Shown: in pieces, positions 12,129 through 32,000 of the stretch
Numbering within the stretch: the stretch's first letter is position 1
Layout of the letters: every line of letters starts with the position of its first letter
DNA from: Synechocystis sp. PCC 6803 substr. PCC-P
GTDB taxonomy: Bacteria; Cyanobacteriota; Cyanobacteriia; Cyanobacteriales; Microcystaceae
Direction: 5' to 3'
Assembly: GCF_000284455.1 (NCBI RefSeq)
Contig: NC_017039.1
Span: 630,001 to 662,000, forward strand
Length of the DNA: 32,000 bases
Program-made: the position numbers and the translations under genes
The notes under the pieces: model-generated
Seen by the model: the letters and a program-made list of their open reading frames with translations, nothing else
What the model was told of the DNA's origin: nothing
Database searches by the model: none

Positions 12129-12254
12129 TCAGTTAATTATTGAATAAATATCACACCGTCCTAGTTTTTAAATCGCAGTCTGGGGCGGTTTGTTACTGGG
12201 AAATCAAACCATTGGCCTAGTTGACTTGCTGAAATTTTTTCTCCTTGCCACGCC

Positions 12255-12569: not shown

Positions 12570-12575
12570 ATCCCT

Positions 12576-13217: not shown

Positions 13218-13245
13218 AATTAACTATGATTGAGAGCAGAAGCTC

Positions 13246-13584: not shown

Positions 13585-13623
13585 CCTTAATCTTTGCCAA
13601 TATTTTTCGGCATATTTTTGGGT

Positions 13624-13651
13624 GTTTCCCCAGGAAAAATTAGGGGGAAAC
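13624..13651. terminator. Hairpin between convergent genes (possible weak bidirectional terminator)
   Basis: GTTTCCCC-aggaaaaattag-GGGGAAAC forms a perfect 8-bp stem with a 12-nt loop. It lies between the stop codons of the repeat protein (+) and frmB (-). There is no strong U-tract on either side. Confidence 0.3.
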
Positions 13652-14481: not shown

Positions 14482-14489
14482 GGGTTGTA

Positions 14490-15608
<1,119 letters not shown>

Positions 15609-15627
15609 TTAACGTTGAAGGGAATAA

Positions 15628-15700
15628 CGGGTGCGGCAGGATTCGAACCTGCGACCGTCCGCTTAGAAGGCGGATGCTCTATCCACTGAGCTACGCACCC
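15628..15700 (-). tRNA. tRNA-Arg (anticodon UCU), no encoded CCA
   Basis: Manual fold of the reverse complement: acceptor GGGTGCG/CGCACCC; D-arm GCTC-AGTGGATA-GAGC; anticodon stem TCCGC/GCGGA with loop CTTCTAA (anticodon TCT); T-arm GCAGG-TTCGAAT-CCTGC; 73 nt. Confidence 0.9.
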
Positions 15701-16006
15701 AGGCTTGCTACTCAATTCCATTCTCCCATATTTTTTGGGGCTAGGATTTCGGTGTTAATGGAATATTTCCGGGGGACAGGGAAAGGATAGTTGACAGCTA
15801 CGGCTGTTGACAGTGCACATCGGGACTGGGCAAAAGAGCAACAGATGGGGGCTTGCTGACATCATTACCCCGTTCCTTTTTGGCAACGGTCATTTGGGTG
15901 TGAATTTTTGTATCTTTCGCCTTTGCGTAGCGCATTTTTCAATAAAGGTCAATATACCATTAGTAGATTGTTTGGTTCATACCACGAAAAAATTGAGTCC
16001 CTGTTG

Positions 16007-16046
16007 AGACCGTCACCGTGGTTTTAAATCTTACCGACGGTCTTTT
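16007..16046 (+). terminator. Terminator-like hairpin in the orphan region upstream of the giant gene
   Basis: AGACCGTC (16007..16014) pairs with GACGGTCT (16036..16043) across a 21-nt loop and runs into TTTT. The long loop makes this weak. Confidence 0.25.
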
Positions 16047-16230
16047 CGCCATTATTGCAAGACTGCCCTGGTGGGCCGGGAGCCCAGGGAGATAAGTTTT
16101 AGCACGCTGTCTATGACCCGAATTCTGCTAGTTAGAGCAACGCTCAGGCGATCACCAATATTGCTGGCCAGTCCATCAAAAGCCTGAATTTGACCGTCGA
16201 CCCTCATTTTATTTGTGGAGCCTAGCCTTA

Positions 16231-19200
16231 ATGAGTATAACTTTATCTGATCGCCTTTCTGCCGTTGTTCAAGACAGTGCCGGAACGAGTCATATTGTTT
16301 GGCTAGAAGGAACCAATATTTGGCACGCTGTTTATGACCCAGTTTCTCAGACATGGAAAAATGCCCAGGCCATTGTCAATACCGCTGGTCAGAACATCCG
16401 AAGTCTTAATTTGGTTGCCGATTCAGGGTTAATTGTCGAATCTGGAACAAGCAATAATACGCTGATTCCAGGCGTGGCAGTTATTTATCAAGAAGGTCTG
16501 GAAAACGACAGTAACTTTTTCTATACCGCGGCGCGCTATGACAATGTTGGCAAACTGCAATGGCTCGAAGCCCCCCAGGCCCTGACAGCGGATCAAGTGG
16601 GGGATTTAGAACCTCGGGCGGTGGTAGACAACGGGGTTATTACAGTAGTCGGGCAAAAAGTTGATCTCGTCAAAGCCCAAAACCAGGCCATCCGGGAAGA
16701 TGCGGATCCATACTATCAAACCTTTCAAATTTACAGCAATCAGTTTTCCACAATCCCATCAACCCCAGTTACGCCCATCGCCGCTTATGCTCCCCAGATT
16801 ACTAAAGATGGTGTCGTTCAAGGCAACTACATTCAGCGGGACCAAAATACTGTGGCCGCATTACCCAGTGCTACTTACCAACCCTTGACCCTTGCAGAAA
16901 CACAATCCAGTAGCTTTCAGGGATGGGGGGCAAATTGGACAGTCTCCCAGACATTTGACACTAACCTAAGCAACTTAAAACTTTTTAAGGGAATGGCGGG
17001 TGTTCCTGAGGCTCTGCTTACGCCCATTTTTAAGAAATTCAATATTACTGGAACATTACTGGGATCTTCAGGTAACAATCCTAATCTTTCATTTTTTGGT
17101 GGCGGAATCAGTACAGAGGGAATATTACTCAATGCCTCGATGGCGGTTCAATTCAATGAAGATGACCAGGACACCAACAATACCTCATCTGGAACTGCAG
17201 GAAGCAGTCTCAATCCGGCAGAAAATACAACACAACTCTCCCGTAAGCCAGAAATTTCCCTCTCTGCCATTGCCGCGACCCTTTATACCTTTGATAAAAG
17301 CTTAGGTGAAGACAATCTTTCCTATCCTTTAACAGTAGAAACGGGCAGTCTTGGCCTAACAGTTGGCTTTACATTTCCGATTCCGATTGAAGGAACACCC
17401 ATTCTCTTTAACTTTTTAGGTAGTGCTGGCCTGGGAATGCAGTGGCAATTATCTCCGAAAGACCCTCAAACCTATGTGTCTCCTGTTGGGGCAGTTTTAT
17501 CTCCTACGGGTGGTGATTCTGATGCGGTACTGGCAGTCCTGTTTAATGTTCCTCCCTTGGGTGCTATCACGGCGATCGGACTGGCGGTAATCTCTGATAT
17601 TACTGAAGTAGTTGAGTTGATTTTCACCGACGTTGATCCTGACGGCAATGAAGCCATAGAACTCGAATCCTTGTTATTTTCGATACCGATTGCGACTGGT
17701 ATTGATGGCGGGATTAAAATCCCCTATGTTTTTGAAGCCTTAGCTGGGATTCAGGCGAGCTTAGTCGGAACCGTTGGCGGCACTCGGTCGGCGGATAATG
17801 GTGCATTTCAATATGACCGAGATCTAAGCCTGGGATTTCCGATGAATATCACCATTAAATTCTTGGGTTTTCTTGGCGGAACAGTGGGTATCTATCCCTA
17901 TTGGACTTGGGGTGATGATCCCAGTAGTAGTGCCAGTAATAGTGATTTCGCCACCCTTAATCAAGCCAGTGCCGATTCTCCCACGGCAATTGTGAGAGGG
18001 CCGCTATTAGAAATCCAAGGGTTACAAACTAACGGCACCCCCCAGGCCACAGATTTCCAAGTTAACGTCAAAGACCCCCTAGGCCAGACCACAACAGTTC
18101 CAGTTTTTGGGGTGATCACTCAGGGCAATACGACCATTCTCCGGCTTGAATCAGCAATTCCGCAAACCAACTTAAACGATCAGCCTTTTTCAAATATTAA
18201 GGTTACTTATCAAAATAATGCTCCGATTCCTGTTGTTAATCAATCGGCCAATACCTTTACCTATAATTACAATCCGATTAGTGGTACTAACAGTAATTAT
18301 CAAGTCACAGGTCAGCAGGTTGTAATTGCCTTTAATGCCACTCTAAATCCCAACATCATACCCGATTCATCTCTATTTCAAGTTACGGATACCAATGGCA
18401 ATTCAATCTCAATTTCCTCTGTTATTGTAACGTCTCGCAGTGTGATCTTAACTCTATCCGGATCGAGCAGCACCTATAGCGTTAGTTATTCGGGTAGTAG
18501 CAGTTCTGGAAATGTATTAACCACAGAAGATAATGTTGCAATTAGTGATTTTAAGATTGCCAGTAATACGCCACCAAGCACCGCTGGACAAGTGAATCGT
18601 ACCTATAGCAACGTGCCAGCAGGAACCACAAGTGCAATTACAACTAACCCCCTGCTCGGTAGTACAGTGGCCCAAGATTATGCTGAGGATAGCCCACCTG
18701 CTTTAGCTGTCACTGATTCTGGTGTGTTGCTGGCCTGGAGTAGTGATACCCCGCCGATTACACCCATTTCTGCCTTGCTATCGGGAACTACGATTATCCT
18801 CACTTTTGCTGACACCCTCGTAAATCTAATTAATACCAACAAGGCCACTAGTAATCCGTTTACAGTTCTAATTAATAATCAAAGTGTTGAAATTCAGGAT
18901 TCATCTAGCACAGGAAATTATGTTGCAATTTCGTTGAATTCAAGTACTGTTATTGATGCTGACGATACGATCTCGGTTAGCTACAGCATTGATTCCACAC
19001 TAGAAAATAGCCTCTTTAATCTTTACCTTTCTGATGCCACAGATTTCGCCTTGTGGGTGCCTGACTTTACCACGCCTGTGACGCAAGCAGCTAGTTCAAC
19101 CAATGCCCCAACGCTATTAGAAGCAGTGGCAATTTCCAATGTCATTACGCTCACCTTTGACCAAATCCTTTCATCTAGCAATCTTCCTCCTGGAAGTCAA

Positions 19201-22200
19201 TTTAAGGTTACAGTCAACAATTCCGATAATTTTATTACTGTGATCAATGAGGTAACAATTGAGAATAATTCTGTTACTTTGCCCTTATCAGAACCCATTG
19301 GACAAGGCGATATTGTTACCGTTAGCTATAGTTCTGGTGCTGGCACATTAGTTAATAGTAATAATATTCCCGTTGCTCCCTTTACAACAAGCGATATTCT
19401 GACCACATTTGCGAATCCTGGGACGGTGATTAAAACACTTTTAGCCACTCCCAGCACCTCAAGCGTTAGTATTGCCTATCCAAGCTCAATTATTGGGACA
19501 AGTGGCTTAAATTACGATCCAGCCGTGTATTTTAACCAGGCCACAAATCAGGTATTTGCTGCTTGGGTGAATGTTGATAGTAGCCAAATTCAGAATCAAC
19601 TCATCCCAGGCCAATATTATAGCAACTTAGAGATTATTACCCAGGCCCTGCAAAGCTCAACTATTTACTTTTCTGTTGCCTCTTTAAAGGATCTTGGTGA
19701 TCTTGGCCCCAACGGTCAAATCATTCCCTGGTCAGTGGCCGCCCCCATTCCCCACCAGCAAACAGGACAGAATACCAATGTCACGCTTGGCCTGGGGCCT
19801 GATGGTTCGATTATGGCGGCCTGGTTAAATACCACACTGGATAATAATGGTACGCCCACAACCACGATTTACTATTCCACACTCAATCAAAATGATAGCT
19901 CCCCGGTCTGGTCTGCCCCTGTTCCCATACTTCCCGACATTAATCCCGATGCCTTTACGCCCCTAACCATTAGTACGATCAATCAACAACCAGCAATTTT
20001 CTGGACTGAATCTTCCCCAGCATCCTATCGTCAGTTAGTTCTTAATGCCGCCCCATCGGTTTATTTACGTCTTGGGGAAAGGACTGGTGATGTAGCCCGC
20101 AATAGTGGTCAGTTTCAAGCCGCCGCCAATGGCACCTATAGCGGTACTTTTACTCTGGGGGAAATGGGAGCCTTAGAAACCACAAGTAACACTGGTGATC
20201 CCAATCCTGCCGTGCTGTTTCAAGGTGGGGGTGTAACGCTTGATCAACCTGTACCTCTGACAAACCAGGCTTTTGCGATTGAGTTTTGGTTTAAGTTGCC
20301 CAATTTACCTCGGGAATCTATCAATCTAGTTTCCGCACTGGGATTATTTGGCCTGGGCCTGGAGGTTGATCCCAATGATCCTAATGCGCCACCGAAACTT
20401 ACCTTTGGCCTGGGTAATGATGATCAGAGCCAAATCCAAGCTAGTGAAACCTTTGCCACTGATGTTTGGTATTACGTTGTTGGTACCTATGATGGCTCAA
20501 GTCAAAACCTGAGTTTGTATCTCAATGGTGTCTTAGCTGGAACCCTGGATGATGTGGAATTTGATCCGTTTCCCACCGCAGCGGCCTTAGCTTTAGCAGG
20601 GGCTTCTACAGCGAATAATCCGGTTTATTTAGATGAAGTGGCATTCTATCCCAAGGCATTAACAGCTTCTAATGTCAATGCGGCAGATTTAACCAATGCA
20701 AATTTCCAAAACCTAACAGGTAGCCAAATTCTTGAGATCATTGCGGGGACAAATCAAATTGGCAACCACTACGCCGCCCAATACAACCAGCCGGTTCCCC
20801 CAGGCCCTAATACTTATTATTCCGTTTCGGATGGTTCAAGTTGGCAACTCCCTAGTCAAATTAACCCCACACCCGCAATCGTTCCCACCCAGTTAGCCGG
20901 GGCCAATATCCCTGTTTTCGATTTAGTCTCTGCCACTCCCGCCCAGGCCAGCACCGCGATTGCGCCCAATGGAATTGCTGATGCCGTTTATCAGATTTCG
21001 CTTTCTAATCCAAACTTAACTATCAGCGGAATTAAAGTTACTAGTGGCAACCAGGCCTGGGCGATTGGCACCGACGACAATGGCACAGCACTCACGGGTA
21101 ATCAGCTTGGCCTACTTTTAGGAGATACCCTACTCAACAGTCTTAATCCCGATACTCAATCCTTTAGCTATCCAATTCAGGGATATACCGAAAATCTCTT
21201 TTTATTCATTGATCCCGGCAGTTCCAATACTACTCTTGGGCCAGTTGAAGTTACGGTTTATTTCGAAAACAACGATAATACCCCTACACCGTTTTCTGTT
21301 GCTCCCTATCAGATAAATATGGCAACAATGGGGCCAGATCAAACAGTTACAGGAACAGCAACGGTTACTGAAGCCAATGATTCCTCCCTCGCCCTAATTG
21401 ATAGTGGGTTTATTATTAATTCCGATAATCCGGCGATCGGGTATGTTTTGGCCAGTGCGTTTAATTCCGATGGTACTTTAGCCTATGTGGCAGTGGGGAA
21501 TCGTGGCTATAGCGACAGTCAGGGCAATGTTCTTAACAACGGGACTGTCCAGATCTTGTTTAGTTGCAGTGATATTCTCTCTGGCAGTGGCTCATTAAGT
21601 ACAACAATTCTCAATGGCAATCCTGATGGGGTTTTAATTACCAATATTCAAGATGCGGGGGATAATCAGCGGAACCTTTCGCTTTCCTTAGCTACGGGAG
21701 ATATTGACGGGGATAGCATTCCTGATTTAGTGATTGGTGCGCCCAATGTGGGTAACTTTGCTGGAGCGGTTTACGTCATCTATGGCAGTTATCTCAGCAA
21801 TCAAAAAGGACAAATAATTGATGTCACAAATCTCAGCACGAAACCTAACACTATGGGTTTTGTGGTTAATGGCAATGAAGCGGAAGACTTAGCGGGCTTT
21901 TCAGTAGTGGTGGGGAACTTTGATGGGGATAGCTATGGTGACATTGTTTACGGTGCGCCCTACGCCAAAGATAGTAACGGGAATCGGGTTGGCCAGGTTT
22001 ATCTAGTTGCTGGTTTTGCCCAAGGAAGTGCTCCAGACTCAATTAGCCCTACAGTCATTTATTCTGGCAAAAGTTTTGATATTCCCAATCCCCAACCGAA
22101 TCCACCAAGTCAAACCCTAACAGTGGGTGAAGGGGCAGGGTTTGCACTGGGAGTTTCACGGCGACTGAGTAATGGACCATCTACATTTACAGGTAGCACA

Positions 22201-25200
22201 ACGACAGATGATCTCTTTATTGGCGCGCCCAACTATCAAATTCAAGTCGTAAATCAATGGACAAATCAAAGTAATCTCCCAGGCCAAAACTCACAAAACC
22301 AACAAAATCAACAAATCACATCAGACCTTTTTCCTAGTTCCAGTTTTGTTTCAGCCGGGGCCGTTTATGTCTATAACTCTAATCAAGGCTTAAGTCTTAA
22401 AACAAATCCTTGGGCCATCTATACCGGGCCAACGATTCCCAATGCTCAAGGCACTGCCACTAGTTATTTTGCTGGAACTGTGATTGGCTCGGGTTTGAAT
22501 ACGGATTTCACAGATTATGACGGAGATGGCCGCCAAGATTTAGTGATTGCCGGGCCTGGGGCCAATACCAACACGGGGCAAGCCTTTGTGATTGGTGGGT
22601 CTACTGCAACTCCATCTGTAACAACTACACAATCTGGAATAACTACAACAACTACACAAGCCTTAAATACAGTCAGTAACCTCGTGATCAATGGTGGATT
22701 AAGTGGGGGCAAAGCGGGAACAGTCATTACTTCAGTGGGAGACTTAAACCATGATGGCTATCAAGACCTTTTAATTACTGCGCCCCAAGGAGCCAATGCT
22801 ACGGGTCAAAGTTATGTCTTATTTGGGACATTGAATTTAAGTGAATTCGGGACTGTTTTTGATCTCAATGTCACCGCTAACGACAACAAAACCACATTTT
22901 TACTCAATGGCGATCAACCCTTCCAGGCTACGGGAACAGCAGCAGTTGGTGTGGGTGATATTAACAATGACGGCGTAGATGACCTAATGCTCACGGCTCC
23001 AGTGGGTCAACAACTTTATGCGGTTTATGGGCATCCCTGGTTAGCGGACGATGGCAGTATCAAACTTGCGGATGTTTCTTCTAATAATGGCTTTGTCATT
23101 GATGGCTACGAATATTCCCTCCCATCTAGCCCCTTTGGTTATGTCCTCAGTTTTGATCTTGTTTATGGCAATGATTTTGAACTGGTTTCTGCTTGGTTGC
23201 AGTTAATTTCGCCCACTGGTCAAGTCATCTGGCGCTCGAATCCAGGAGAAGGAGTAACGGTTACGCCCGAAGCCTATGCCATTATGCAAAGTGACGGCAA
23301 CTTTGTGATTTACGGCCAACCAGGGGGGAATTCAGGGGATGTCATTTGGAGTTCCAATACAGCAGGGAATAGCGGGGCTGTTCTGAAATTAGCCTCGGAT
23401 GGCGGTCTTTATATTGTTGATTCCGAGGGCAATATTGTCCCCAATGGTACTCTAAATCCTGGGAATACTAGCCTGATTACTAATGCTGTTACCCTCGACG
23501 AAAATCAAGAAATTAATATCAGTCTCGATACCTTTCTGTCCAATGGGGAGAATGGCGGCAGTCTCTTTGGTAATGGCCTCAACATTGTAATGGTTGGGGA
23601 TGTTAATGGCGATGGCTTTGCTGATGTGATTTCTGGGGGAAGTCCGGCTGGGGGAGTGCTTATTTTTGGCAACAGCACTAAAGATTTACTCGATGCAGCC
23701 CTAGGCACTGACGATTTAATTATTTCGGTGGAAAACGCTCAAGTTAAAGAGTTTGTTGCCCTTGGAGATTTTGATGGGGATGGCTTAGCTGATTTTGGCG
23801 TTATTGATGATCAAGGCAACTTCTTTCTGGTTTTAGGCAGTCCGGAATTAGGTAGCCAAGGTAGCCTTGTTATTGACTCTACTTTGCCAAATTTATCTAA
23901 CTTTAACCAGGCCTGGGGAGTCGGAGATTTTAATGGCAACGGTTACGATGATTTTGTCTTACAAGGCCCTAATTCTACGATCGCCGTTTACGGTAACGCT
24001 AATGGAACATTAACCGACTCATCTCCTTTAACGTTTGGTAACAATTTCCCCCTACCCAGTTCTTTCACAGGTATTGATTTAAATGGCAATGGCATCAAGG
24101 AAATTGTCGCCGGTCAGCCCAACTTAAACCCAGTCCCTAATATCGGTGGCTTTGGTGGTGGTTTACAGTATTTTACCTATGAGGCTGGAAATGCGGTTTT
24201 ACAACCAACGGTTAATCCTCCCAATGCCTCAGTTACGGAGGCTTCTGGTCTGTCTTCATGGGGACAAATTTCGTTTCCTAATCAATATGCCCAAGCTGGT
24301 GTGCCGTCATTTGCAACGTTAGATGGCTGGCTGTATCAAGCATTTTACGGAATCAACGAGCGTATTTCCACTAAAGATTCATACATTTATATCCAACGAA
24401 GCCGAGATGGAGTCAGCTGGGAAAACCTCACTCAAGTCGTCCCGCTCGATAGCAATGGTACGCCGATTGATCTTAAGAATTTGCCCCCCTCAATTACGGC
24501 TTACAATGGCACACTTTATTTAGGCTTTACTGCTGACAATGGCCAGGTGTGGGTTGCAGAAGGAGTCAATACTAATGCCAACTCCGGGATACTCATCAAT
24601 GCCGTCCCAATCAATCAAGCCTCCAATAATGGCCCAACATTAGTGGCCTTTAATGATGAACTCTATGTATTCTTTGTTAAAGATGCTTCCGATAATGACA
24701 TTCTCTATTCCAGTTCCAGCAATCCAGGGAGTAGTAGTGGCTGGGATGGTACCAGTACCGTTCTCACGTTTAGCGATGTTAACCAGGCGACTAATTTCCC
24801 CCTCAGTGCTACCGTTGTCCCTGGATTAGATGGGGATACTCTTGCCGTAGCATTTCGTTCTAATAACTCCCCCGCAACTTGGGTCGGCCTTCTCAACTCC
24901 AGCGATGTAACAAATTGGCAGGGTTCGGCAGAATTAACCCAGGTTGACGCCAACTCCCAAGTATCCCTAACTGTGGTAGATGGGACTTATTATTTATTTT
25001 TCACTTCAAGCACTGAGGCTAGTGCTTCATATGCTACCTCTACAGATGGCTTGAATTGGGGAGATATCACATTAATTCCCTGGGATGATGGCAACCTTGG
25101 TGGTGTTGCATCAATCTTATTTAATCAAAGCTTTATTTTATCATTGAATCAAAGTAATAATGAATCTCTTCTTTTTGCTTTTTCAAATTCATTATTCGAG

Positions 25201-28149
25201 CCGAATCAAGCAAGTCGTTGGGGTGAGCAAGTCCGGGACATTGGTGATTTTAATGGAGATGGTATTGCTGATTTAGCCGTGTTGGCCCCTGGCTACCGAA
25301 ATCTACTGCAATTTCCAATTTTAGACTACCCAGCTATCAACAATTTAGGGGGTGTGTTCATTTACTACGGAGAGGAGAGTGGGATTTCGGTTAATGATCC
25401 TCCTGATGTTGTTTTAGCTGCGCCTGATCTTCCCCAGGAAACCATTTTTGAATTACTGGAAATTACTCCTACTGGTGATGTAAATGGAGATGGCTTTGAT
25501 GATTTGTTAATTAGTGCACCTCTCACCCCTGTTATTGCTGGTCAATTTCCTGATGTCAATGGTGATCAAGGGGTAAGCTGGGTCGTTTTTGGCGGAACCC
25601 ATTGGGGAACTGAGTACACCGCAAATTCGCCTTTCGGTTTAGGGAACCTTGCCAACAATCAAACCAATAATAGTCAAAACTTTAATCCCTATGGTTTTGT
25701 GACGACTGGATTACCGAGATCCCAAGCTGGTATTTCCATCAGTGGCGGGGCAGATGTAAATGGTGATGGTTTTAGTGATTTTGCCCTAGGTGCGCCGGGT
25801 AACTTTGACAATCTCAGTTATGTGCTGTTTGGCAGTGACTTTACCAACCAAGTCAATCAACTGGGAACCATTGGCGATGATGTCATGTTGGGCAGTCCCA
25901 CAGGGGAAATATTTGTTGCTGGCCAAGGAGATGATCAAATTTATACCAATGGCGGGGTGGATACGGTTTATGCCGGCCCTGGGAATGATTTCGTGACGGT
26001 CACTGATACGAATTTCCGACGGTTGGATGGCGGCAGTGGCAATAATATTCTCAAGTTTACGGGCTACACAAATCAAGATTGGGATTTAACCACTCTTTCC
26101 CCAGGCCTGCGACTGAAAAATTTTAATATTCTCGATGTCCGGGATTACGGGGCTAATATCCTTACCCTCAATGCTCTGACGATTACACAACTTTCAGCTA
26201 ATAACGAAGTTCGGGTTCTTTTAGACGCCAATGACAAGATCAATCTAGATTCAAGTTTTAGCTTTAGTGAAAAAGTCTATCTCGATAACCAAAACTATTA
26301 TCTTTATACCTCTAACGCTTCAGCCGCCACTGTGTTGGTCAATGTCCCCTCCAATCAGGTTACGTTTACTGCTACGACGAGCAATTCCCCCAGTCTCAAC
26401 CTAATTCCCACGGCTCAACCCAATGCTCCTACTACCACCGATGTAACCATCCTCGCCGCCACTAATTCTGACCCAAATCAACCCACCCGTTTATTTGTCT
26501 CTAACCCGAAAGTTTCCGAAGCTGCTGGAGAGGCCCAGTTTGTCATTGAGCGCACGGGAGACTTAAACAAATATGTGTTGGTCAGCTACATCACCCAGGA
26601 TATGAGTGGCAAAGCTGGCGATCGCTATTTACCCATAGCAGGACAGTTAATATTTAATCCTGGAGAGAACCAAAAAAACATCACAGTTAAAATTCCTACT
26701 GACTCTGTTTATACCGCCGATCGCCAATTTAGCCTATTGGTTTCTTTGCTGAATGATGGTTTGGAAGCAGGAGATTGGGGCGATGCTTTTGCTTTAGCCG
26801 GTGATGCCAATGGTGCCCAGATCCGTCGTTGGAACTACCTGGCCGGGAATTGGGATAACAGTGTCATGGGTGGCTTGATTGATTTCTCCACCACGGTTAA
26901 TTCCGACCAAGCTGAGATTCATTTGAGTGTTGAAGGCTTAGGGGAATTTAACGACTTTTTTGGTTACGATCCCCTCAGCCAAACCTATCAATCCATAATG
27001 TTTAATGGTGCCACAGGGGCCCGGCTCACCAATTCAGATAGCCCAAACGCTATTGGCGGAGTAGAACTTAAACTTTTGGACGGCGATCGAGGTGATGCCG
27101 ATGGCATAGTTAATGGTTTGGTGGCAACTAATGGTTATGCGGGCCGCACCATCCCAGGCTTAATTAGCAATAATAACCGAGTTTTTTGGGCTCCCACCAA
27201 CGCCGATGGCCAAGTGCAACTCAGGTTAATCAATAGCCCCTCACAAAACTATGAAATTGGTTGGGTTATGGTGGATAGTGCCGATGGTGCCATTGATGGT
27301 TTACTTCCTGATGATCCGGGCTATGAGGAGGCCGCTTTGGCCCGCAAACAAGCTGTTTTTAGTGATCAAGCCAATGCCTCAGCCCAGGCTTTAACCCGTA
27401 GTTTAGCCCGACAAAGTTTTACTGATATTGAAGCTTTTGCCAGGACAGAATCACAATTTTTTGGTAGCTTTAGTAACTCTAATTTAGAAGCTAATCGTTA
27501 CTATATGCTCTATAGTCAACAGGGAGAAGAAATTGCTTTTTCCATTGATGCTCCACTAATGGTTGAAACAGATAGTCGAGGTTATCATCAGTTAGATTTT
27601 AATGGCATTACTACAGAAATCGCTTCCAAAACTTTGGTTGTGCCGGGAATTTTAAACCAGACTGTGACGACAAATGTTTCCATTAGTCGTGCGGGGGCTT
27701 ACGAAAATCTTATTGTTCTCTACAAAGTGGATAGTCTGACCGGGGGCATTGATACCGATGGCGATCGCCAGATTAATTTAAACCCAGGGGATGTGGGCTA
27801 TGTACAGGCGGCATTAACCAGGGCCCAGAATCCAGCAACGGGGCTAAGCTTAAACGCCCCTGACGAGTTTTTTAGCACTACTCAAAAGACCATCAGTTTG
27901 TCGGGCAATAATATTTATGGCATGGCGATTATTCCCAACTCATCCATCGAAGAAGTGTTAAGCAAAAATCCCACTAACGACCCGAACCTTGGCCCTGTGG
28001 CCCTTTTTTCTTTTGAGCAAGCCAATCCTGGGGGAGTGAGCCAAATGAGTCGTCTGGGTAGTAACCTGTTTGGTTTTGAAGATATGGTGGGCGGCGGCGA
28101 TCTTGACTACAATGACATAATTTTACAATTCAGCTTTCTAACTTCATAA
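16231..28149 (+). CDS. Giant (about 3970 aa) multidomain cell-surface / adhesin-like protein with FG-GAP, Calx-beta, lectin, LamG and DUF4114 modules
   Basis: A single uninterrupted frame. The ORF-track start 16213 is a TTG; I prefer ATG 16231, which has GGAG 10 nt upstream. Domains are identified by motif and listed as separate features. From memory this corresponds to slr1028, one of the Synechocystis 'integrin alpha / beta4 domain homologue' proteins. Confidence 0.9.
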   Translation: MSITLSDRLSAVVQDSAGTSHIVWLEGTNIWHAVYDPVSQTWKNAQAIVNTAGQNIRSLNLVADSGLIVESGTSNNTLIPGVAVIYQEGLENDSNFFYTAARYDNVGKLQWLEAPQALTADQVGDLEPRAVVDNGVITVVGQKVDLVKAQNQAIREDADPYYQTFQIYSNQFSTIPSTPVTPIAAYAPQITKDGVVQGNYIQRDQNTVAALPSATYQPLTLAETQSSSFQGWGANWTVSQTFDTNLSNLKLFKGMAGVPEALLTPIFKKFNITGTLLGSSGNNPNLSFFGGGISTEGILLNASMAVQFNEDDQDTNNTSSGTAGSSLNPAENTTQLSRKPEISLSAIAATLYTFDKSLGEDNLSYPLTVETGSLGLTVGFTFPIPIEGTPILFNFLGSAGLGMQWQLSPKDPQTYVSPVGAVLSPTGGDSDAVLAVLFNVPPLGAITAIGLAVISDITEVVELIFTDVDPDGNEAIELESLLFSIPIATGIDGGIKIPYVFEALAGIQASLVGTVGGTRSADNGAFQYDRDLSLGFPMNITIKFLGFLGGTVGIYPYWTWGDDPSSSASNSDFATLNQASADSPTAIVRGPLLEIQGLQTNGTPQATDFQVNVKDPLGQTTTVPVFGVITQGNTTILRLESAIPQTNLNDQPFSNIKVTYQNNAPIPVVNQSANTFTYNYNPISGTNSNYQVTGQQVVIAFNATLNPNIIPDSSLFQVTDTNGNSISISSVIVTSRSVILTLSGSSSTYSVSYSGSSSSGNVLTTEDNVAISDFKIASNTPPSTAGQVNRTYSNVPAGTTSAITTNPLLGSTVAQDYAEDSPPALAVTDSGVLLAWSSDTPPITPISALLSGTTIILTFADTLVNLINTNKATSNPFTVLINNQSVEIQDSSSTGNYVAISLNSSTVIDADDTISVSYSIDSTLENSLFNLYLSDATDFALWVPDFTTPVTQAASSTNAPTLLEAVAISNVITLTFDQILSSSNLPPGSQFKVTVNNSDNFITVINEVTIENNSVTLPLSEPIGQGDIVTVSYSSGAGTLVNSNNIPVAPFTTSDILTTFANPGTVIKTLLATPSTSSVSIAYPSSIIGTSGLNYDPAVYFNQATNQVFAAWVNVDSSQIQNQLIPGQYYSNLEIITQALQSSTIYFSVASLKDLGDLGPNGQIIPWSVAAPIPHQQTGQNTNVTLGLGPDGSIMAAWLNTTLDNNGTPTTTIYYSTLNQNDSSPVWSAPVPILPDINPDAFTPLTISTINQQPAIFWTESSPASYRQLVLNAAPSVYLRLGERTGDVARNSGQFQAAANGTYSGTFTLGEMGALETTSNTGDPNPAVLFQGGGVTLDQPVPLTNQAFAIEFWFKLPNLPRESINLVSALGLFGLGLEVDPNDPNAPPKLTFGLGNDDQSQIQASETFATDVWYYVVGTYDGSSQNLSLYLNGVLAGTLDDVEFDPFPTAAALALAGASTANNPVYLDEVAFYPKALTASNVNAADLTNANFQNLTGSQILEIIAGTNQIGNHYAAQYNQPVPPGPNTYYSVSDGSSWQLPSQINPTPAIVPTQLAGANIPVFDLVSATPAQASTAIAPNGIADAVYQISLSNPNLTISGIKVTSGNQAWAIGTDDNGTALTGNQLGLLLGDTLLNSLNPDTQSFSYPIQGYTENLFLFIDPGSSNTTLGPVEVTVYFENNDNTPTPFSVAPYQINMATMGPDQTVTGTATVTEANDSSLALIDSGFIINSDNPAIGYVLASAFNSDGTLAYVAVGNRGYSDSQGNVLNNGTVQILFSCSDILSGSGSLSTTILNGNPDGVLITNIQDAGDNQRNLSLSLATGDIDGDSIPDLVIGAPNVGNFAGAVYVIYGSYLSNQKGQIIDVTNLSTKPNTMGFVVNGNEAEDLAGFSVVVGNFDGDSYGDIVYGAPYAKDSNGNRVGQVYLVAGFAQGSAPDSISPTVIYSGKSFDIPNPQPNPPSQTLTVGEGAGFALGVSRRLSNGPSTFTGSTTTDDLFIGAPNYQIQVVNQWTNQSNLPGQNSQNQQNQQITSDLFPSSSFVSAGAVYVYNSNQGLSLKTNPWAIYTGPTIPNAQGTATSYFAGTVIGSGLNTDFTDYDGDGRQDLVIAGPGANTNTGQAFVIGGSTATPSVTTTQSGITTTTTQALNTVSNLVINGGLSGGKAGTVITSVGDLNHDGYQDLLITAPQGANATGQSYVLFGTLNLSEFGTVFDLNVTANDNKTTFLLNGDQPFQATGTAAVGVGDINNDGVDDLMLTAPVGQQLYAVYGHPWLADDGSIKLADVSSNNGFVIDGYEYSLPSSPFGYVLSFDLVYGNDFELVSAWLQLISPTGQVIWRSNPGEGVTVTPEAYAIMQSDGNFVIYGQPGGNSGDVIWSSNTAGNSGAVLKLASDGGLYIVDSEGNIVPNGTLNPGNTSLITNAVTLDENQEINISLDTFLSNGENGGSLFGNGLNIVMVGDVNGDGFADVISGGSPAGGVLIFGNSTKDLLDAALGTDDLIISVENAQVKEFVALGDFDGDGLADFGVIDDQGNFFLVLGSPELGSQGSLVIDSTLPNLSNFNQAWGVGDFNGNGYDDFVLQGPNSTIAVYGNANGTLTDSSPLTFGNNFPLPSSFTGIDLNGNGIKEIVAGQPNLNPVPNIGGFGGGLQYFTYEAGNAVLQPTVNPPNASVTEASGLSSWGQISFPNQYAQAGVPSFATLDGWLYQAFYGINERISTKDSYIYIQRSRDGVSWENLTQVVPLDSNGTPIDLKNLPPSITAYNGTLYLGFTADNGQVWVAEGVNTNANSGILINAVPINQASNNGPTLVAFNDELYVFFVKDASDNDILYSSSSNPGSSSGWDGTSTVLTFSDVNQATNFPLSATVVPGLDGDTLAVAFRSNNSPATWVGLLNSSDVTNWQGSAELTQVDANSQVSLTVVDGTYYLFFTSSTEASASYATSTDGLNWGDITLIPWDDGNLGGVASILFNQSFILSLNQSNNESLLFAFSNSLFEPNQASRWGEQVRDIGDFNGDGIADLAVLAPGYRNLLQFPILDYPAINNLGGVFIYYGEESGISVNDPPDVVLAAPDLPQETIFELLEITPTGDVNGDGFDDLLISAPLTPVIAGQFPDVNGDQGVSWVVFGGTHWGTEYTANSPFGLGNLANNQTNNSQNFNPYGFVTTGLPRSQAGISISGGADVNGDGFSDFALGAPGNFDNLSYVLFGSDFTNQVNQLGTIGDDVMLGSPTGEIFVAGQGDDQIYTNGGVDTVYAGPGNDFVTVTDTNFRRLDGGSGNNILKFTGYTNQDWDLTTLSPGLRLKNFNILDVRDYGANILTLNALTITQLSANNEVRVLLDANDKINLDSSFSFSEKVYLDNQNYYLYTSNASAATVLVNVPSNQVTFTATTSNSPSLNLIPTAQPNAPTTTDVTILAATNSDPNQPTRLFVSNPKVSEAAGEAQFVIERTGDLNKYVLVSYITQDMSGKAGDRYLPIAGQLIFNPGENQKNITVKIPTDSVYTADRQFSLLVSLLNDGLEAGDWGDAFALAGDANGAQIRRWNYLAGNWDNSVMGGLIDFSTTVNSDQAEIHLSVEGLGEFNDFFGYDPLSQTYQSIMFNGATGARLTNSDSPNAIGGVELKLLDGDRGDADGIVNGLVATNGYAGRTIPGLISNNNRVFWAPTNADGQVQLRLINSPSQNYEIGWVMVDSADGAIDGLLPDDPGYEEAALARKQAVFSDQANASAQALTRSLARQSFTDIEAFARTESQFFGSFSNSNLEANRYYMLYSQQGEEIAFSIDAPLMVETDSRGYHQLDFNGITTEIASKTLVVPGILNQTVTTNVSISRAGAYENLIVLYKVDSLTGGIDTDGDRQINLNPGDVGYVQAALTRAQNPATGLSLNAPDEFFSTTQKTISLSGNNIYGMAIIPNSSIEEVLSKNPTNDPNLGPVALFSFEQANPGGVSQMSRLGSNLFGFEDMVGGGDLDYNDIILQFSFLTS
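17980..19390 (+). other. Four or more SwmB-like / Ig-like beta-sandwich repeats within the giant protein
   Basis: Recurrent pattern 'xx(I/V)xLTFxxxL...xxFxVxxNxxxxxIxxVxxxxxxVxLxLxxxxxxxDxVxVSYS'. Example 1: NVITLTFDQILSSSNLPPGSQFKVTVNN...NSVTLPLSEPIGQGDIVTVSYSS. Example 2: TTIILTFADTL...NPFTVLINNQSVEI...DDTISVSYS. Example 3: QQVVIAFNATLNP...SLFQVTDTNGNSISISSVIVTSRSVILTLS...YSVSYSG. Confidence 0.55.
20050..20680 (+). other. LamG / concanavalin-A-like lectin domain (Laminin_G_3-like)
   Basis: The order of motifs is typical of bacterial LamG_3 modules: VYLRLGERTGDVARNSGQ...NGTYSG...AFAIEFWFKL...DVWYYVVGTYDGSSQNLSLYLNGVLAGT...VYLDEVAFYPKALTASNV. Confidence 0.65.
21440..23060 (+). other. FG-GAP (integrin-alpha beta-propeller) repeat block 1
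   Basis: Repeated Ca-binding loops DxDxDGxxD followed by xxGAP...G.xYVxxG. The loops are GDIDGDSIPDLVIGAPN..GAVYVIYG, GNFDGDSYGDIVYGAPYA..GQVYLVAG, DYDGDGRQDLVIAGPGA..GQAFVIGG, GDLNHDGYQDLLITAPQG..GQSYVLFG and GDINNDGVDDLMLTAP..QLYAVYG. Confidence 0.8.
23190..23460 (+). other. Bulb-type (GNA-like, B_lectin) mannose-binding lectin domain
   Basis: AIMQSDGNFVIYGQPGGNSGDVIWSSNTAGNSGAVLKLASDGGLYIVDSEGNIV contains one exact QxDxNxVxY site (QSDGNFVIY, nt 23287..23313), the WxSNT motif, and a degenerate second site (ASDGGLYIV). Confidence 0.7.
23560..24125 (+). other. FG-GAP repeat block 2
   Basis: The loops are GDVNGDGFADVISGG, GDFDGDGLADFGVIDDQGNFFLVLG, GDFNGNGYDDFVLQG and IDLNGNGIKEIVAG. Confidence 0.75.
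24290..25200 (+). other. Asp-box (BNR)-containing beta-propeller-like region
   Basis: There are two exact SxDGxxW Asp-boxes: SRDGVSW at nt 24400..24420 and STDGLNW at nt 25039..25059. They sit among recurring blade-like strands: LDGWLYQAFYG, YNGTLYLGFTADNGQVWVA, FNDELYVFFV, VDGTYYLFFTS. Confidence 0.5.
25230..25850 (+). other. FG-GAP repeat block 3
   Basis: The loops are GDFNGDGIADLAVLAPG, GDVNGDGFDDLLISAP and ADVNGDGFSDFALGAPGNFDNLSYVLFG. Confidence 0.75.
25860..26060 (+). other. RTX-like glycine/aspartate-rich calcium-binding repeat segment
   Basis: GTIGDDVMLGSPTGEIFVAGQGDDQIYTNGGVDTVYAGPGNDFVTV...LDGGSGNNILKF resembles degenerate GGxGxD nonapeptide (hemolysin-type) repeats. Confidence 0.5.
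26490..26760 (+). other. Calx-beta domain
   Basis: LFVSNPKVSEAAGEAQFVIERTGDLNKYVLVSYITQDMSGKAGDRYLPIAGQLIFNPGENQKNITVKIPTDSVYTADRQFSLLVSL follows the Calx-beta pattern: V.E..G...v.V.R.G......v.y.T.dgtA.ag.DY....g.l.F.pGe..k.i.v.i.dD...E..E.F.v.L. Confidence 0.75.
27930..28146 (+). other. C-terminal DUF4114-like domain
   Basis: The terminal sequence PVALFSFEQANPGGVSQMSRLGSNLFGFEDMVGGGDLDYNDIILQFSF carries the characteristic FEDxxGGGDxDYND motif. Confidence 0.7.
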
Positions 28150-28363
28150 ATTAAGTACAAAAGTGACATAGAGGAATAGGCTGATCTATCCCCTTGAGTC
28201 TGATCTGGTCCCGCAACCGAAATTAGTCCGCTCCACTCCTGTCCCGAGGGTGTGTCAGAATGGTTAACGGCCGGATTTTAGCGCCTTGTCACTAAACTGC
28301 CAGATTTGCCCAGTCAAATCCCTATTTGAATTCGAAACTTTTACTATTATTGTCTCTTTGCCC

Positions 28364-29437
28364 ATGACTGCCACCCTTGCCGCCCCCAGCAAAACCCGCC
28401 GTGTTGTTTTTCCTTTTACGGCGATCGTCGGTCAAGATGAAATGAAGTTGGCCCTGTTGCTCAATGTCATTGATCCCAAGATTGGCGGCGTCATGATCAT
28501 GGGCGATCGGGGAACCGGGAAATCCACTACCATTAGAGCTTTGGCGGATTTGTTGCCGGAAATTGAGGTGGTGGCCAATGATCCTTTTAACTCTTCCCCC
28601 AGCGATCCCGAGATGATGAGTGAGGAAGTACGGATCCGGGTAGATAGCCAAGAACCTTTATCTATTGTCAAAAAGAAAGTCACCATGGTGGATTTGCCCC
28701 TGGGGGCAACGGAAGACCGGGTGTGCGGCACCATCGACATCGAAAAGGCATTATCAGAAGGAGTTAAAGCCTTTGAACCGGGTTTATTGGCCAAAGCCAA
28801 CCGGGGCATTCTCTATGTGGACGAAGTTAACCTGTTGGACGATCACTTAGTGGACGTGTTGTTGGACTCCGCTGCTGGGGGTTGGAACACGGTGGAGCGG
28901 GAAGGTATTTCCATTCGCCATCCGGCCCGGTTTGTTTTAGTGGGTTCCGGTAACCCAGAAGAAGGGGAATTGCGGCCTCAATTGTTGGATCGATTCGGCA
29001 TGCATGCTGAAATTCGCACTGTGCGGGAACCGGAATTGCGGGTAAAAATTGTCGAACAACGGACGGAGTTTGACCAAAATCCCCATCCTTTCTGTGACCA
29101 ATATCAAACGGAACAGGAAGCGTTACAAGCAAAAATTGTTAATGCCCAGAATTTACTGCCCCAAGTGACCATTGACTACGACTATCGGGTGAAAGTATCG
29201 GAAGTCTGTGCAGAACTTGATGTGGACGGGTTACGGGGAGATATTGTTACCAATCGGGCCGCCAAAGCCCTGGCCGCTTTTGAAGGTCGCACTGAGGTAA
29301 CAGTGGATGATATTAGCCGAGTAATTGTGCTTTGTTTACGCCATCGTTTACGGAAAGATCCTCTAGAGTCCATTGATTCCGGCAGTAAGGTGGAAAAGGT
29401 ATTTAAACGGGTTTTTGGCGTTGTCGATGAAGCTTAA
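28364..29437 (+). CDS. chlI: Magnesium chelatase ATPase subunit I
   Basis: [40 protein letters not shown] (AAA+ Walker A), Walker [17 protein letters not shown], and the arginine-finger region. I prefer the start at ATG 28364 ([10 protein letters not shown]...), giving 357 aa, over the track's alternative start at 28286. Confidence 0.95.
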
Positions 29438-29471: not shown

Positions 29472-30686
29472 ATGGTTGTAAATTCTGATCCCGATTGGCT
29501 TTGGCGGGGAACGGCGGAAATTTTTCCCCACAATGCTGACTCAAACAATCCCCAGGAACATTTAGGGATTTTAACCCAACAGGACAGACCTCTACGGGTA
29601 AAGCTGGGCATTGATCCCACGGGCACGGACATTCATTTAGGCCATAGCATTCCCTTCCGTAAATTGCGGGCGTTTCAGGATGCGGGCCACACAGCGGTGG
29701 TAATTATTGGTGATTTCACTGCCCAAATTGGCGATCCCACTGGGAAATCGGAAGTACGGAAACAGTTAACTGCGGATCAGGTGAAACGCAATGCAGAAAG
29801 TTACCTAGCTCAGTTAAAACCAATTCTAGATTTTGATACTCCAGGAAGATTGGAAATCCGTTACAACTCCGAATGGTTAAGCAATTTAGATTTGAATAAA
29901 ATTCTGGAATTGCTAGCAACGATGACAGTGGGACAGATGTTAGCCAAGGAAGGGTTTGCGGAGCGTTTCCAAAAGGAAAATCCGATCTTTTTGCACGAAT
30001 TTCTTTACCCTTTAATGCAGGGGTATGATTCTGTCGCTGTAAATGCAGATGTGGAATTGGGGGGCACTGATCAAAAGTTTAATATTGCGGTGGGCCGGGA
30101 TTTACAACGGCATTTTGGCAAAACTCCTCAATTTGGTTTACTGTTGCCGATTTTGCTGGGGACAGATGGACAACAAAAAATGTCCAAGTCTCTGAACAAT
30201 TATGTGGGTTTACAGGAAGATGCTTTATCCATGTACTCCAAGCTGGAGAAGACGCCTGATCGCCTGTTGGGGGAATATTTCGAGTTACTAACTAACTTGG
30301 ACTTGGCCGAGTTACCGGAGAATCCCAGGGAGTGCCAAAAGTTGCTCGCCAAGGAAGTTACAGCCCAGTTCCATGGAGTTGCAGGGGCGATCGCCGCCCA
30401 AAAAACAGCGGAGGATATTGTCACCCAAGGTAAGGCGGGTAATACGGACAGTGTGCCGGAATTTTCCCTAGCTGAAATTACTTTTCCGGTGAAATTGGCC
30501 TATCTCCTCAGTGCCAGTGGCCTGTGCCCCAGTAGTAGTGAAGGGAGAAGGCAAATCAAGGGGGGGGCTGTGCGCTTAGATGGCGATCGCCTAGAGGATG
30601 TTAATCAGGAATATGCCGATCCCAAAATGTTAATTAATAAGGTGTTGCAAATGGGCAAGAAAAAATTTATTCGTCTGATTTCTTAA
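29472..30686 (+). CDS. tyrS: Tyrosine--tRNA ligase
   Basis: Class I signatures HLGH (DIHLGHSIP) and KMSKS ([10 protein letters not shown]), plus a C-terminal S4-like domain ([18 protein letters not shown]). It starts 34 nt after chlI. Confidence 0.9.
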
Positions 30687-30873
30687 TCTCCAAGGCGATC
30701 AGCTTCTTAACTTTCACAAAAAGCGATCATTCTATTCGTAACAAGCTCACACTCGAAAAAAGAGGTTTAACGCTTTCCCAAAAATCGCACTGCGATATTG
30801 TAGATCACACCAGCATAGATAGTATGCTGATGAGCAGGTTTTTTAGTTATGAGTATAATCAAACGAATTTGAT

Positions 30874-31227
30874 ATGCCCACCCCACAAGCACTGTATCGC
30901 GGGGCTGTACAAGCTCAAGGTGACGACATTACACAAAATGGGGGCTATACTCGCTCTTGGGCGCGGGGTACTCCTGTGACGGCTCAAGAGGGATTAGACT
31001 TTCTTGCTAAGATTGAGGAACAATGCAATGAGTCTCAGAAAGAACAACGAAATTCAGCTTTTGTCAAAGCTGAACGTTTTATCAAGAATGCTAGTAAAAA
31101 TGGAGGTGTTGATCAAAATTCTCAACCTCATCCTTTTCAAAATCCTAGACGTACTGTTCCAAACGCTCGTGTTGATATTGAAATTCGCAAAGGTTTGACT
31201 TTTATTCCTGCTAAAAATTTGGAATGA
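30874..31227 (+). CDS. Hypothetical protein (117 aa), first gene of an AT-rich two-gene cassette
   Basis: ATG-initiated ORF. Its TGA stop overlaps the ATG of the next ORF (ATGA at 31224..31227). I recognise no family motif. Composition shifts from GC-rich at the 5' end to AT-rich. Confidence 0.5.
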   Translation: MPTPQALYRGAVQAQGDDITQNGGYTRSWARGTPVTAQEGLDFLAKIEEQCNESQKEQRNSAFVKAERFIKNASKNGGVDQNSQPHPFQNPRRTVPNARVDIEIRKGLTFIPAKNLE

Positions 31228-32000
31228 CAATACTTTTTACCAAAATTCAAGCAATGTCAGACTCTACCGATTTGGATAGAGCAATAGATAAGCTTGACAA
31301 AATTTCTATTAATTTTGGTGCCGTAGATGAACAGATAAGGTGTTTTGCATTTTTATTAGCAATTGCCGAAGAAAATATTGCTGAGATTGTCTTAGGTATA
31401 TTAGTTAGAGGAATCATGAAATATGAACCAAATAGGGTTAATAATGAAGTTCTTTGGCTATTTTTGGCAGCCGTTTTGTCTCGTTCAAATATTACGCCTG
31501 CCAGTGCTTTAAGAATTAGTCTTTTAGGAATAGTATCTCGTATTGAAGATTGGGCATCACCCATTTTTGCATTACTAGTTACCGCATTAGATAGTTTTTT
31601 ACGTAATAGCCTGGAATATGGAGACCCTTTAATTGCAGAGCAAACTTTAGATTTTCTTGCCACTTGGGGCGAGAATTATGCTCAAGCACCTCGTACTTTA
31701 GAGCAAGTTGCAAAGATTAACTCTTTAGCTCGTTTAGTTTTACAAAAAGTTGATGAACCTATTCTTCAGGAGGAATGGTCAGAAGGGTTAGATTTATTTT
31801 TAAATATTGCTCATATTGCTTGTAAAATAAAATATTCAGATCAACGTATTTGGTCGTCTTCAGTAGAACTACTTAAGGATCTCTATCCTGTAAATATTTT
31901 AAATAATAATAATGAATATTCAGACAAGCACCGTCAAGTTCAAAAAAATATTCTAAAATTAATTGATTCTTCTCTGGCTGTAATCGGAACTATTTTTGTT
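31224..32000 (+). CDS. Hypothetical all-helical protein, 3'-truncated by the window end (not in the supplied ORF track)
   Basis: My own translation of the frame starting at ATG 31224 gives MTILFTKIQAMSDSTDLDRAIDKLDKISINFGAVDEQIRCFAFLLAIAEENIAEIVLGILVRG...KLIDSSLAVIGTIFV. It is open for all 259 codons to base 32000. The frame is closed upstream by TAA at 31212. The listed minus-strand ORF 31247..31663 is its antisense shadow. Confidence 0.6.
   Translation, partial: MTILFTKIQAMSDSTDLDRAIDKLDKISINFGAVDEQIRCFAFLLAIAEENIAEIVLGILVRGIMKYEPNRVNNEVLWLFLAAVLSRSNITPASALRISLLGIVSRIEDWASPIFALLVTALDSFLRNSLEYGDPLIAEQTLDFLATWGENYAQAPRTLEQVAKINSLARLVLQKVDEPILQEEWSEGLDLFLNIAHIACKIKYSDQRIWSSSVELLKDLYPVNILNNNNEYSDKHRQVQKNILKLIDSSLAVIGTIFV

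Follow-up and report, generated by a model that had tools for sequence, protein, structure and literature searches.

The locus considered here lies at the 3' end of a 32,000-nucleotide stretch of the chromosome of Synechocystis sp. PCC 6803 substr. PCC-P (NC_017039.1, forward-strand positions 630,001 to 662,000), called the window in what follows. Downstream of the tyrosyl-tRNA synthetase gene tyrS, two plus-strand open reading frames (ORFs), a small gene of 117 codons and a large gene that runs out of the window, form a compact cassette (Table 1). A preliminary description made from the letters alone had reported AT-rich composition and a different codon usage after tyrS, and the measurements bear this out: the GC content is 0.362 over positions 30687-32000 and 0.329 over 31224-32000, compared with 0.472 in the remaining window, and GC at third codon positions is 0.254 in the small gene and 0.194 in the second ORF, compared with 0.503 in chlI and 0.474 in tyrS. 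The low GC sets in at about 30819, and the stretch from there to 32000 (0.357) lies below every other window stretch of equal size (minimum 0.408, mean 0.473, standard deviation 0.028).

The stop codon of the small gene overlaps the start codon of the large gene in an ATGA at 31224-31227, the proposed point of translational coupling, and the same overlap occurs in at least 14 related loci. The frame of the large gene stays open for all 259 codons up to the window end, and the extension past position 32000 that the preliminary description had called for completes it: in the full chromosome it encodes 565 aa (L002 10351-12048; L002 coordinates are window coordinates minus 20873), and just behind it the tyrS 3' end occurs a second time. 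The second ORF is thus real, as had been supposed. Homologues of the large protein align from its first Met, and the ATG in the overlap is the conserved start; the start at Met-11 given in some annotations was rejected, as the homologue alignments begin at the ATGA-overlapping Met instead. The 138-aa minus-strand ORF runs opposite to a frame whose protein is conserved across 47 clusters and is therefore a mere shadow of that frame, again as suspected. Identical copies of the 117-aa protein are encoded on AP012277.1 and CP129343.1.

Table 1 Features of the tyrS-cassette region in window coordinates (HIP1, highly iterated palindrome 1).
Feature	Start	End	Strand	Remarks
tyrS 3' repeated segment, copy 1	30386	30613	+	starts at HIP1 GGCGATCGCC (30386-30395)
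Foreign-type tyrS 3' tail	30614	30686	+	last ~24 codons; possible start as early as 30595
Spacer, 132 bp	30687	30818		from the tyrS stop to the conserved cassette DNA
Cassette leader	30819	30873	+	DNA homology to metagenomic copies starts at L002 9946 (window 30819)
Small gene	30874	31227	+	117 aa, basic, cyanobacteria-only family; proposed effector or toxin
Large gene, first 259 codons	31224	32000	+	predicted N-terminal alpha-solenoid; alpha/beta and DUF7226 domains beyond the window
138-aa antisense ORF	31247	31663	-	wholly within the protein-conserved plus frame; shadow of the large gene, not a gene

Comparison with close relatives shows where the insert begins and ends. In Synechocystis PCC 7338 and two S. 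salina LEGE strains (L034-L036) the site is empty, tyrS (405 aa) being followed directly by ssb in the order chlI, tyrS, ssb and a gene of 175 aa. Homology of PCC 6803 to these genomes ends on the left at L002 9740 (window 30613) and resumes on the right at L002 12114, so that PCC 6803 has 2,373 bp extra (window 30614 to what would be position 32986) and carries 228 bp of tyrS in duplicate. Copy 1 of the doubled segment contains a second HIP1, GCGATCGC, at 30583-30590; copy 2 lies beyond the window at L002 12114-12341 (window 32987 onward), and the single-copy equivalent in PCC 7338 is L034 6915-7142. The two copies are 93.5% identical over 231 bp. The displaced tyrS 3' fragment as a whole covers L002 12114-12417 (window equivalent 32987-33290) and aligns with window 30386-30686; the homology of the duplication begins exactly at the HIP1 decamer GGCGATCGCC and amounts to about 300 bp in total. 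Gene callers list the displaced fragment as a 78-aa ORF with SYY_C-terminal and S4 domains, in some cases with a GTG start.

All of the first 12 differences between the tyrS 3' copies are synonymous third-position changes, and over its first ~200 nt the displaced copy differs from the functional one by synonymous changes only. As the chance of 12 such differences out of 12 would be ~0.25^12 for a neutrally decaying dead copy, both copies derive from functional tyrS alleles. The functional TyrS of PCC 6803 (404 aa) carries the tail type of a different TyrS clade (404 aa; P0221-P0226, L037), and the displaced fragment ends in QKPQDLDGKVLQVGKKKFIRFTAN, the 405-aa tail of the nearest relatives, PCC 7338, S. 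salina, CACIAM 05 and FACHB-383. In PCC 6714 and CS-94, TyrS (404 aa) and the small and large proteins are encoded by consecutive genes (AIE73449-AIE73451), and the foreign-type TyrS codons are the last three only. A left boundary that differs between PCC 6803 and PCC 6714 while the cargo is the same is what would be expected of a homologous crossover. The 132-bp spacer is not common to the cassette copies in L032 and L033 or to those in any other fetched locus.

Taken together, the empty sites in relatives, the tyrS scar and the presence of cassette DNA elsewhere at 78.6% identity argue for the horizontal acquisition put forward in the preliminary description. The 2.37-kb segment between tyrS and ssb is very probably an insert acquired in the PCC 6803/6714 lineage, which entered by recombination anchored in the 3' end of tyrS. 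Recombination would have given the functional tyrS a foreign C-terminal tail and displaced the native 3' end, from the HIP1 site on, behind the insert; keeping this native end would have preserved both essential neighbours. Candidate routes are a Campbell-type single crossover of a circular intermediate or, alternatively, one-sided homology-facilitated illegitimate recombination between chromosome copies.

The fragment had also been described as free of HIP1, a hallmark of resident cyanobacterial DNA. This holds for the fragment itself and carries no statistical weight there: the 32 kb hold 15 HIP1 sites, so that a 1.3-kb piece would have none with a probability of 0.54, and positions 12108-26618 are likewise without HIP1. 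The absence becomes meaningful only across the family, where the cassettes of 27 loci (L002, L012-L061, some close relatives included) hold 3 HIP1 sites against ~56 expected from the density in their flanks. In every host the cassette is nearly devoid of HIP1 and does not acquire this hallmark.

The tyrS site has been used more than once. In the metagenomic contig L039, which belongs to the 404-aa clade, chlI and tyrS are followed by a minus-strand Uma2 gene and a displaced tyrS fragment (L039 3722-5113); the duplication there measures 297 bp at 90% identity and has the same HIP1 start as in PCC 6803. Neither the cassette nor the Uma2 gene adjoining it elsewhere is related to this lone Uma2 gene, and since unrelated cargo came with the same duplication, the duplication is a property of the site or of host recombination and not of the cassette. 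In both PCC 6803 and L039 the tyrS copies are ~95% identical from the shared HIP1 to the second HIP1, 196 nt further, and diverge strongly from about 10-30 nt past the latter; the switch in the sequence mosaic falls within about 25 nt of that second HIP1. A rearranged cassette in the metagenome-assembled genome L022 is flanked by a 27-bp direct repeat, GTGAATCTCTCTCGTAGTG[C/A]GATCGC, that also ends in HIP1. In L022 (9595-11650) a truncated RelE/HigB-like ORF takes the place of the small gene, together with a HigA-like fragment fused in frame to the large gene; the RelE/HigB and HigA assignments were read by eye from the translation. A general bracketing of cassettes by HIP1 found no support, as most loci lie at an unremarkable distance from their nearest HIP1. 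Perhaps foreign gene cassettes taken up by cyanobacteria are joined by illegitimate recombination preferentially at HIP1 palindromes; we regard this as doubtful, a lead and not a result, although the recurrent HIP1-bounded junctions make it a concrete and testable one. If it proved general, HIP1, long unexplained, would gain a role in genome plasticity.

Beyond PCC 6803 the cassette behaves as a portable unit. The conserved DNA extends from window 30819 to 14 nt beyond the large ORF and recurs on two metagenomic contigs with 78.6% identity over 2,136 bp, where it adjoins a Uma2 gene. The pair was found in more than 50 loci in unrelated contexts, a count that overstates the independent observations since several metagenome loci are near-duplicates. 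Of 18 genome loci, 17 have the small gene as the immediate upstream neighbour of the large one, and this arrangement holds for all metagenome loci in which the small gene is intact. All named source organisms are cyanobacteria (Nostocales, Oscillatoriales, Spirulina, Snowella, Microcystis and Pseudanabaenales), most metagenomic matches being without an organism name, and the pair appears to be restricted to this phylum. Neighbouring genes vary between genomes and are mostly housekeeping genes, Uma2 making up 8 of 118 neighbouring ORFs, and the GC content of the cassette is usually below that of its flanks. In several Nostocales (L012, L014, L017, L024, L025) alaS, which also encodes an aminoacyl-tRNA synthetase, follows the cassette immediately; this adjacency may be coincidence or vertical inheritance within a Nostocales clade.

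At the left edge of the conserved cassette DNA lies a palindrome, AGCATA-N5-TATGCT (30812-30828), and a TATAAT (30854-30859) follows 14 nt before the ATG of the small gene. A TTAGYYA..RTTTGA motif upstream of the small gene is common to about 35 loci, and Microcystis cassettes have a good sigma-70-type promoter in the upstream position. In PCC 6803 an Rfam search and a promoter/terminator scan gave nothing above chance, the 132-bp spacer included. Palindrome, TATAAT and shared motif together could form an operator or leader, and the module probably brings its own promoter or operator in this leader.

The small protein is basic (isoelectric point 9.25) and its homologues form 21 clusters at 58-82% identity, with 34 invariant positions that include VQAQGxDI..GGY..WA and ARVDI. 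It is more conserved than the large protein, which shows 43-52% identity outside Synechocystis. Its AlphaFold2 model (mean predicted local distance difference test score, pLDDT, 88.8; predicted template modelling score 0.81) has a beta2-alpha3-beta3 topology. Foldseek found no analogue of this model in the Protein Data Bank (PDB; best E 2) and a borderline match among viral models (BFVD) to an uncharacterised Klebsiella phage protein (E 0.036, template modelling score, TM, 0.5). Pfam, PADLOC, NCBIfam and PHROGs gave no match, and a profile search of PDB sequences with the small family gave nothing.

The large protein is acidic (isoelectric point 5.2) with a basic C-terminal domain (8.5), and its homologues, of 550-570 aa, form 47 clusters at 43-91% identity. 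Its AlphaFold2 model (pLDDT 82.6) comprises three domains: a helical repeat of 13 helices (residues 1-250), an alpha/beta domain (253-370) and a helical C-terminal domain (410-553). Foldseek matched the model weakly to ARM/HEAT proteins (beta-catenin, importins) and designed repeat proteins (E 0.008-0.1, TM at most 0.3), and no Pfam repeat was matched. The earlier impression of an all-helical protein with HEAT/ARM-like repeats therefore fits the first ~250 residues and fails for the rest. As modelled, the N-terminal helical repeat appears to be without a catalytic motif or enzymatic signature; its one match in PHROGs is phrog_38246, a hypothetical protein.

The C-terminal domain connects the large protein to a wider family. 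A Pfam scan of the 565-aa protein and four homologues found DUF7226 (PF23871) as the sole domain and no DUF6575; the PCC 6803 protein scores 17.1 bits (E 0.005) and the homologues 25.3-28.8 bits against a gathering threshold of 27, which P0034 alone exceeds. A family profile retrieved 307 proteins at E≤1e-10, and 77 of 105 sampled matches carry DUF7226; because the profile retrieves DUF7226 proteins, homology of the C-terminal domain is secure despite the missed curated cut-off. An exhaustive profile search gave 484 relatives, which outside the cyanobacterial family have only residues ~270-553 in common with it. In 47 of the 105 sampled relatives an N-terminal DUF6575 is present, these DUF6575-DUF7226 proteins being ~430 aa long. 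One of them, encoded by a Pantoea plasmid, likewise has an overlapping small ORF upstream, which is unrelated to the cyanobacterial small family (hhalign probability 0.1%). The C-terminal domain shows helix-turn-helix-wing-like patterns, RQxxYYxxAxxLGL...LTxxG and LSxxTxxRRAxTLxxW. Beyond the sub-threshold DUF7226 the large protein had no significant match in Pfam, PADLOC or NCBIfam, and neither the whole large family nor a 30-sequence DUF7226 alignment, used as profiles, retrieved anything from PDB sequences. The statement of the preliminary description that neither protein matches a recognised family agrees with the Pfam, PADLOC and PDB searches, which gave no significant match.

Copies of the large gene are also found in phages. 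Microcystis phage Ma-LMM01 and its relatives encode a homologue of residues 1-257 of the large protein, named gp104 in Ma-LMM01 (43-44% identity; phrog_38246). In Ma-LMM01, gp104 is the N-terminal domain alone (266 aa) without a small partner, and its gene lies in opposite orientation among late and middle genes. A Microcystis aeruginosa genome has, downstream of the small gene, a short form of the large gene to which gp104 is 88.7% identical, and this indicates recent exchange between host and phage. A full-length large gene (555 aa) stands right after a tail protein gene (phrog_4271, E 1.6e-90) on the 90-kb IMG/VR contig L078, which has no small gene; the small gene was found neither in 50,697 phage records nor in IMG/VR. 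Among hosts, short forms combine the small gene with the N-terminal domain only (271-286 aa), and intermediate forms of 407-411 aa occur. In the host loci L022, L025 and L073-L076 the N-terminal domain is kept while the small gene is deleted or replaced. No locus with the small gene but without the N-terminal domain was seen among the genome and metagenome loci examined.

Based on these observations we propose, with a probability of about 40%, that the pair is a toxin-antitoxin-like phage-conflict module in which the small protein is the effector and the large protein its neutraliser. The small basic protein would act as the effector, and the N-terminal alpha-solenoid of the large protein would bind and neutralise it. 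The basic C-terminal DUF7226 domain would bind DNA, possibly at the module's own promoter, which would amount to autoregulation. Phages carrying the large gene or its N-terminal domain without the small gene would do so to keep the host toxin neutralised. Coupling, co-inheritance, the asymmetry of occurrence, phage carriage, the pattern of charge and conservation and the domain architecture, all read from sequence and models, suggest such a role. The preliminary description had named defence or a toxin-immunity pair as examples; this seems plausible, and the phage copies point to a role in phage-host conflict.

Several observations weigh against this proposal. Searches of Pfam, PADLOC, NCBIfam, PDB sequences and Foldseek found no homology to a known toxin, antitoxin or defence family, and no defence island was present among the cassette neighbourhoods (118 neighbouring ORFs). 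The toxin-first order and an antitoxin of 565 aa would both be atypical. DNA binding by the DUF7226 domain is plausible and is argued from predicted secondary structure and charge. That the large gene occurs alone and the small gene never does would also follow from a role of the small protein as an accessory subunit of the large protein. In Ma-LMM01 infection gp104 is weakly transcribed and does not belong to the early class (log2 fragments per kilobase per million, FPKM, of 3.6, 3.8, 6.5 and 7.3 at 0, 1, 3 and 6 h; PMC5780444, Table S3); the signal at 0 h may be cross-mapping from the host copy. Finally, in PD-T4-10, the only experimentally characterised system to which the cassette can be linked, the polarity is opposite: this two-gene toxin-antitoxin-type abortive-infection system has a large second protein, PD-T4-10B, that is toxic and contains the domain DUF6575 (Vassallo et al. 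2022, PMC9519451).

Alternatively, the pair may have no part in conflict: the large protein would be a DNA-binding regulator or scaffold and the small protein its cofactor in some accessory cellular function, with phages having borrowed the large gene to manipulate the host. The winged-helix-like helix-wing patterns of the basic helical C-terminal domain, the absence of a toxin-like fold among the Foldseek matches of the small protein and the position of the cassette among housekeeping genes and not in defence islands are consistent with this, and an accessory subunit would never be kept alone. We nevertheless consider it unlikely, as the cassette is distributed patchily and by strain and keeps its foreign composition and low HIP1 content in every host, and as the frequent decay to short forms and repeated phage capture are typical of selfish or conflict modules and not of a regulator embedded in host physiology. 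A PD-T4-10-like polarity, with the small protein as antitoxin and the large one as an abortive-infection toxin whose variable N-terminal domain is the toxic part, is less likely again. It would account for the shared order of small then large overlapping ORFs, which in PD-T4-10 encode a neutralising A and a toxic B protein, and for the homology of residues ~270-553 to the ~430-aa DUF6575-DUF7226 proteins, whose DUF6575 matches PD-T4-10_B models and which also have an overlapping small ORF upstream. However, this link takes two domain hops, as the PCC 6803 protein is without DUF6575 and matches no PD-T4-10 model, and the small partner in Pantoea is unrelated. An intact large gene without the small gene, as in phages and some hosts, is unexpected for an unneutralised toxin, and the alpha-solenoid predicted for the N-terminal domain offers no enzymatic signature.

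It is highly improbable that the cassette mobilises itself, one of its proteins being a new recombinase or transposase that creates the flanking duplications. Its genomic positions do vary, and direct repeats flank it in PCC 6803 (228-300 bp) and L022 (27 bp), but flanking direct repeats of 11 bp or more are missing from 18 of 20 loci, neither protein contains a recombinase, transposase or nuclease domain or motif, and the lone Uma2 cargo of L039 gave the same HIP1-bounded tyrS duplication. A transposon-like element was rejected on the same grounds, the missing repeats and the unrelated cargo at the same tyrS site. Least probable of all is that both ORFs are decaying foreign DNA without function in PCC 6803. 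Truncated and deleted variants do exist in several genomes, but both ORFs are intact in PCC 6803, in PCC 6714 and in most of the more than 50 loci, and protein identities of 43-82%, many invariant residues, confident fold predictions and the conserved ATGA overlap speak against decay.

Some neighbouring features of the window and its surroundings deserve mention in their own right. The chlI ORF at 28286-29437 begins with TTG and encodes 383 aa, while the gene-caller annotation has 357 aa, so that translation probably starts at a Met inside the ORF. Between an alcohol dehydrogenase gene (14490-15599, minus strand) and chlI lies an ORF of 3978 aa with SWM-repeat, FG-GAP and Calx-beta domains (16213-28149, plus strand), mostly inside the 14.5-kb HIP1-free stretch at 12108-26618. 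As the gap between the alcohol dehydrogenase gene and chlI is only about 335 bp in PCC 7338 and S. salina, this 12-kb gene has the look of another insertion particular to the strain, the second one in this window. On the far side of the cassette, downstream of the 175-aa gene that follows ssb, there is an IS1-type DDE transposase fragment (128-aa ORF; L002 13623-14009, minus strand), and no IS1-type gene is called at the matching place in PCC 7338.

As a natural case, the locus shows cleanly how foreign DNA can be inserted beside an essential gene without breaking it in a cyanobacterium that is polyploid and naturally transformable. As both proteins are present in the main cyanobacterial model organism, the toxin-antitoxin hypothesis is directly testable. 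If the small protein is indeed a toxin and the large one its neutraliser, they would represent a new toxin-antitoxin or abortive-infection family, restricted to cyanobacteria and with new folds. The neutraliser would then have been captured by phages of bloom-forming Microcystis, which would bear on the dynamics between phages and blooms.

No paper was found on either protein family, presumably slr1032 and slr1033 in PCC 6803, or on gp104, and for DUF6575 the one paper located was Vassallo et al. 2022. Both families are listed as hypothetical proteins in public records. Like PD-T4-10, the cassette consists of a small ORF overlapping a larger one behind it, neither having a predicted function, and its large protein shares its C-terminal half with the DUF6575-DUF7226 proteins, whose DUF6575 matches PD-T4-10_B; in the enterobacterial relatives this match covers the N-terminal 120 residues only. 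It differs from PD-T4-10 in its unrelated small partner, its confinement to cyanobacteria and the phage carriage that argues for the opposite polarity, and the PADLOC models of PD-T4-10 gave no match at E≤1 to the small protein, the large protein or three homologues. Toxin-first type II toxin-antitoxin operons such as HigBA, HicAB and MqsRA form another point of comparison, and antitoxins or antitoxin mimics carried by phages serve as counter-defence. Like these, the cassette is bicistronic with a start/stop overlap and travels as a unit, its first product is small and basic, its second is acidic with a putative DNA-binding domain, and the second gene occurs alone in phages. Unlike them, it has no similarity to them in sequence or fold, and its putative antitoxin, with 565 aa and three domains, is far larger than usual. 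On present evidence the cassette qualifies as a member of no named toxin-antitoxin or defence family.

As an insertion, the PCC 6803 locus resembles the tRNA/tmRNA-type islands, which integrate into the 3' ends of genes and bring a replacement 3' end. Here, too, the incoming DNA supplies the 3' end of the target, which stays functional, the displaced native 3' end forms a direct repeat on the far side and relatives have an empty site, as in integrase-mediated islands (the 228-300-bp tyrS repeat and L034-L036). The insert differs from such islands in that it holds two ORFs only, neither with a recombinase domain, and no integrase; its repeat is 228-300 bp of diverged homology and not a short identical core, its right junction falls at a HIP1 palindrome and its left boundary differs between PCC 6803 and PCC 6714. 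Insertion-duplication and homology-facilitated illegitimate recombination are both known to occur in naturally transformable bacteria. The cassette is thus best described as a horizontally acquired, translationally coupled two-gene accessory module whose insertion restores its target gene.

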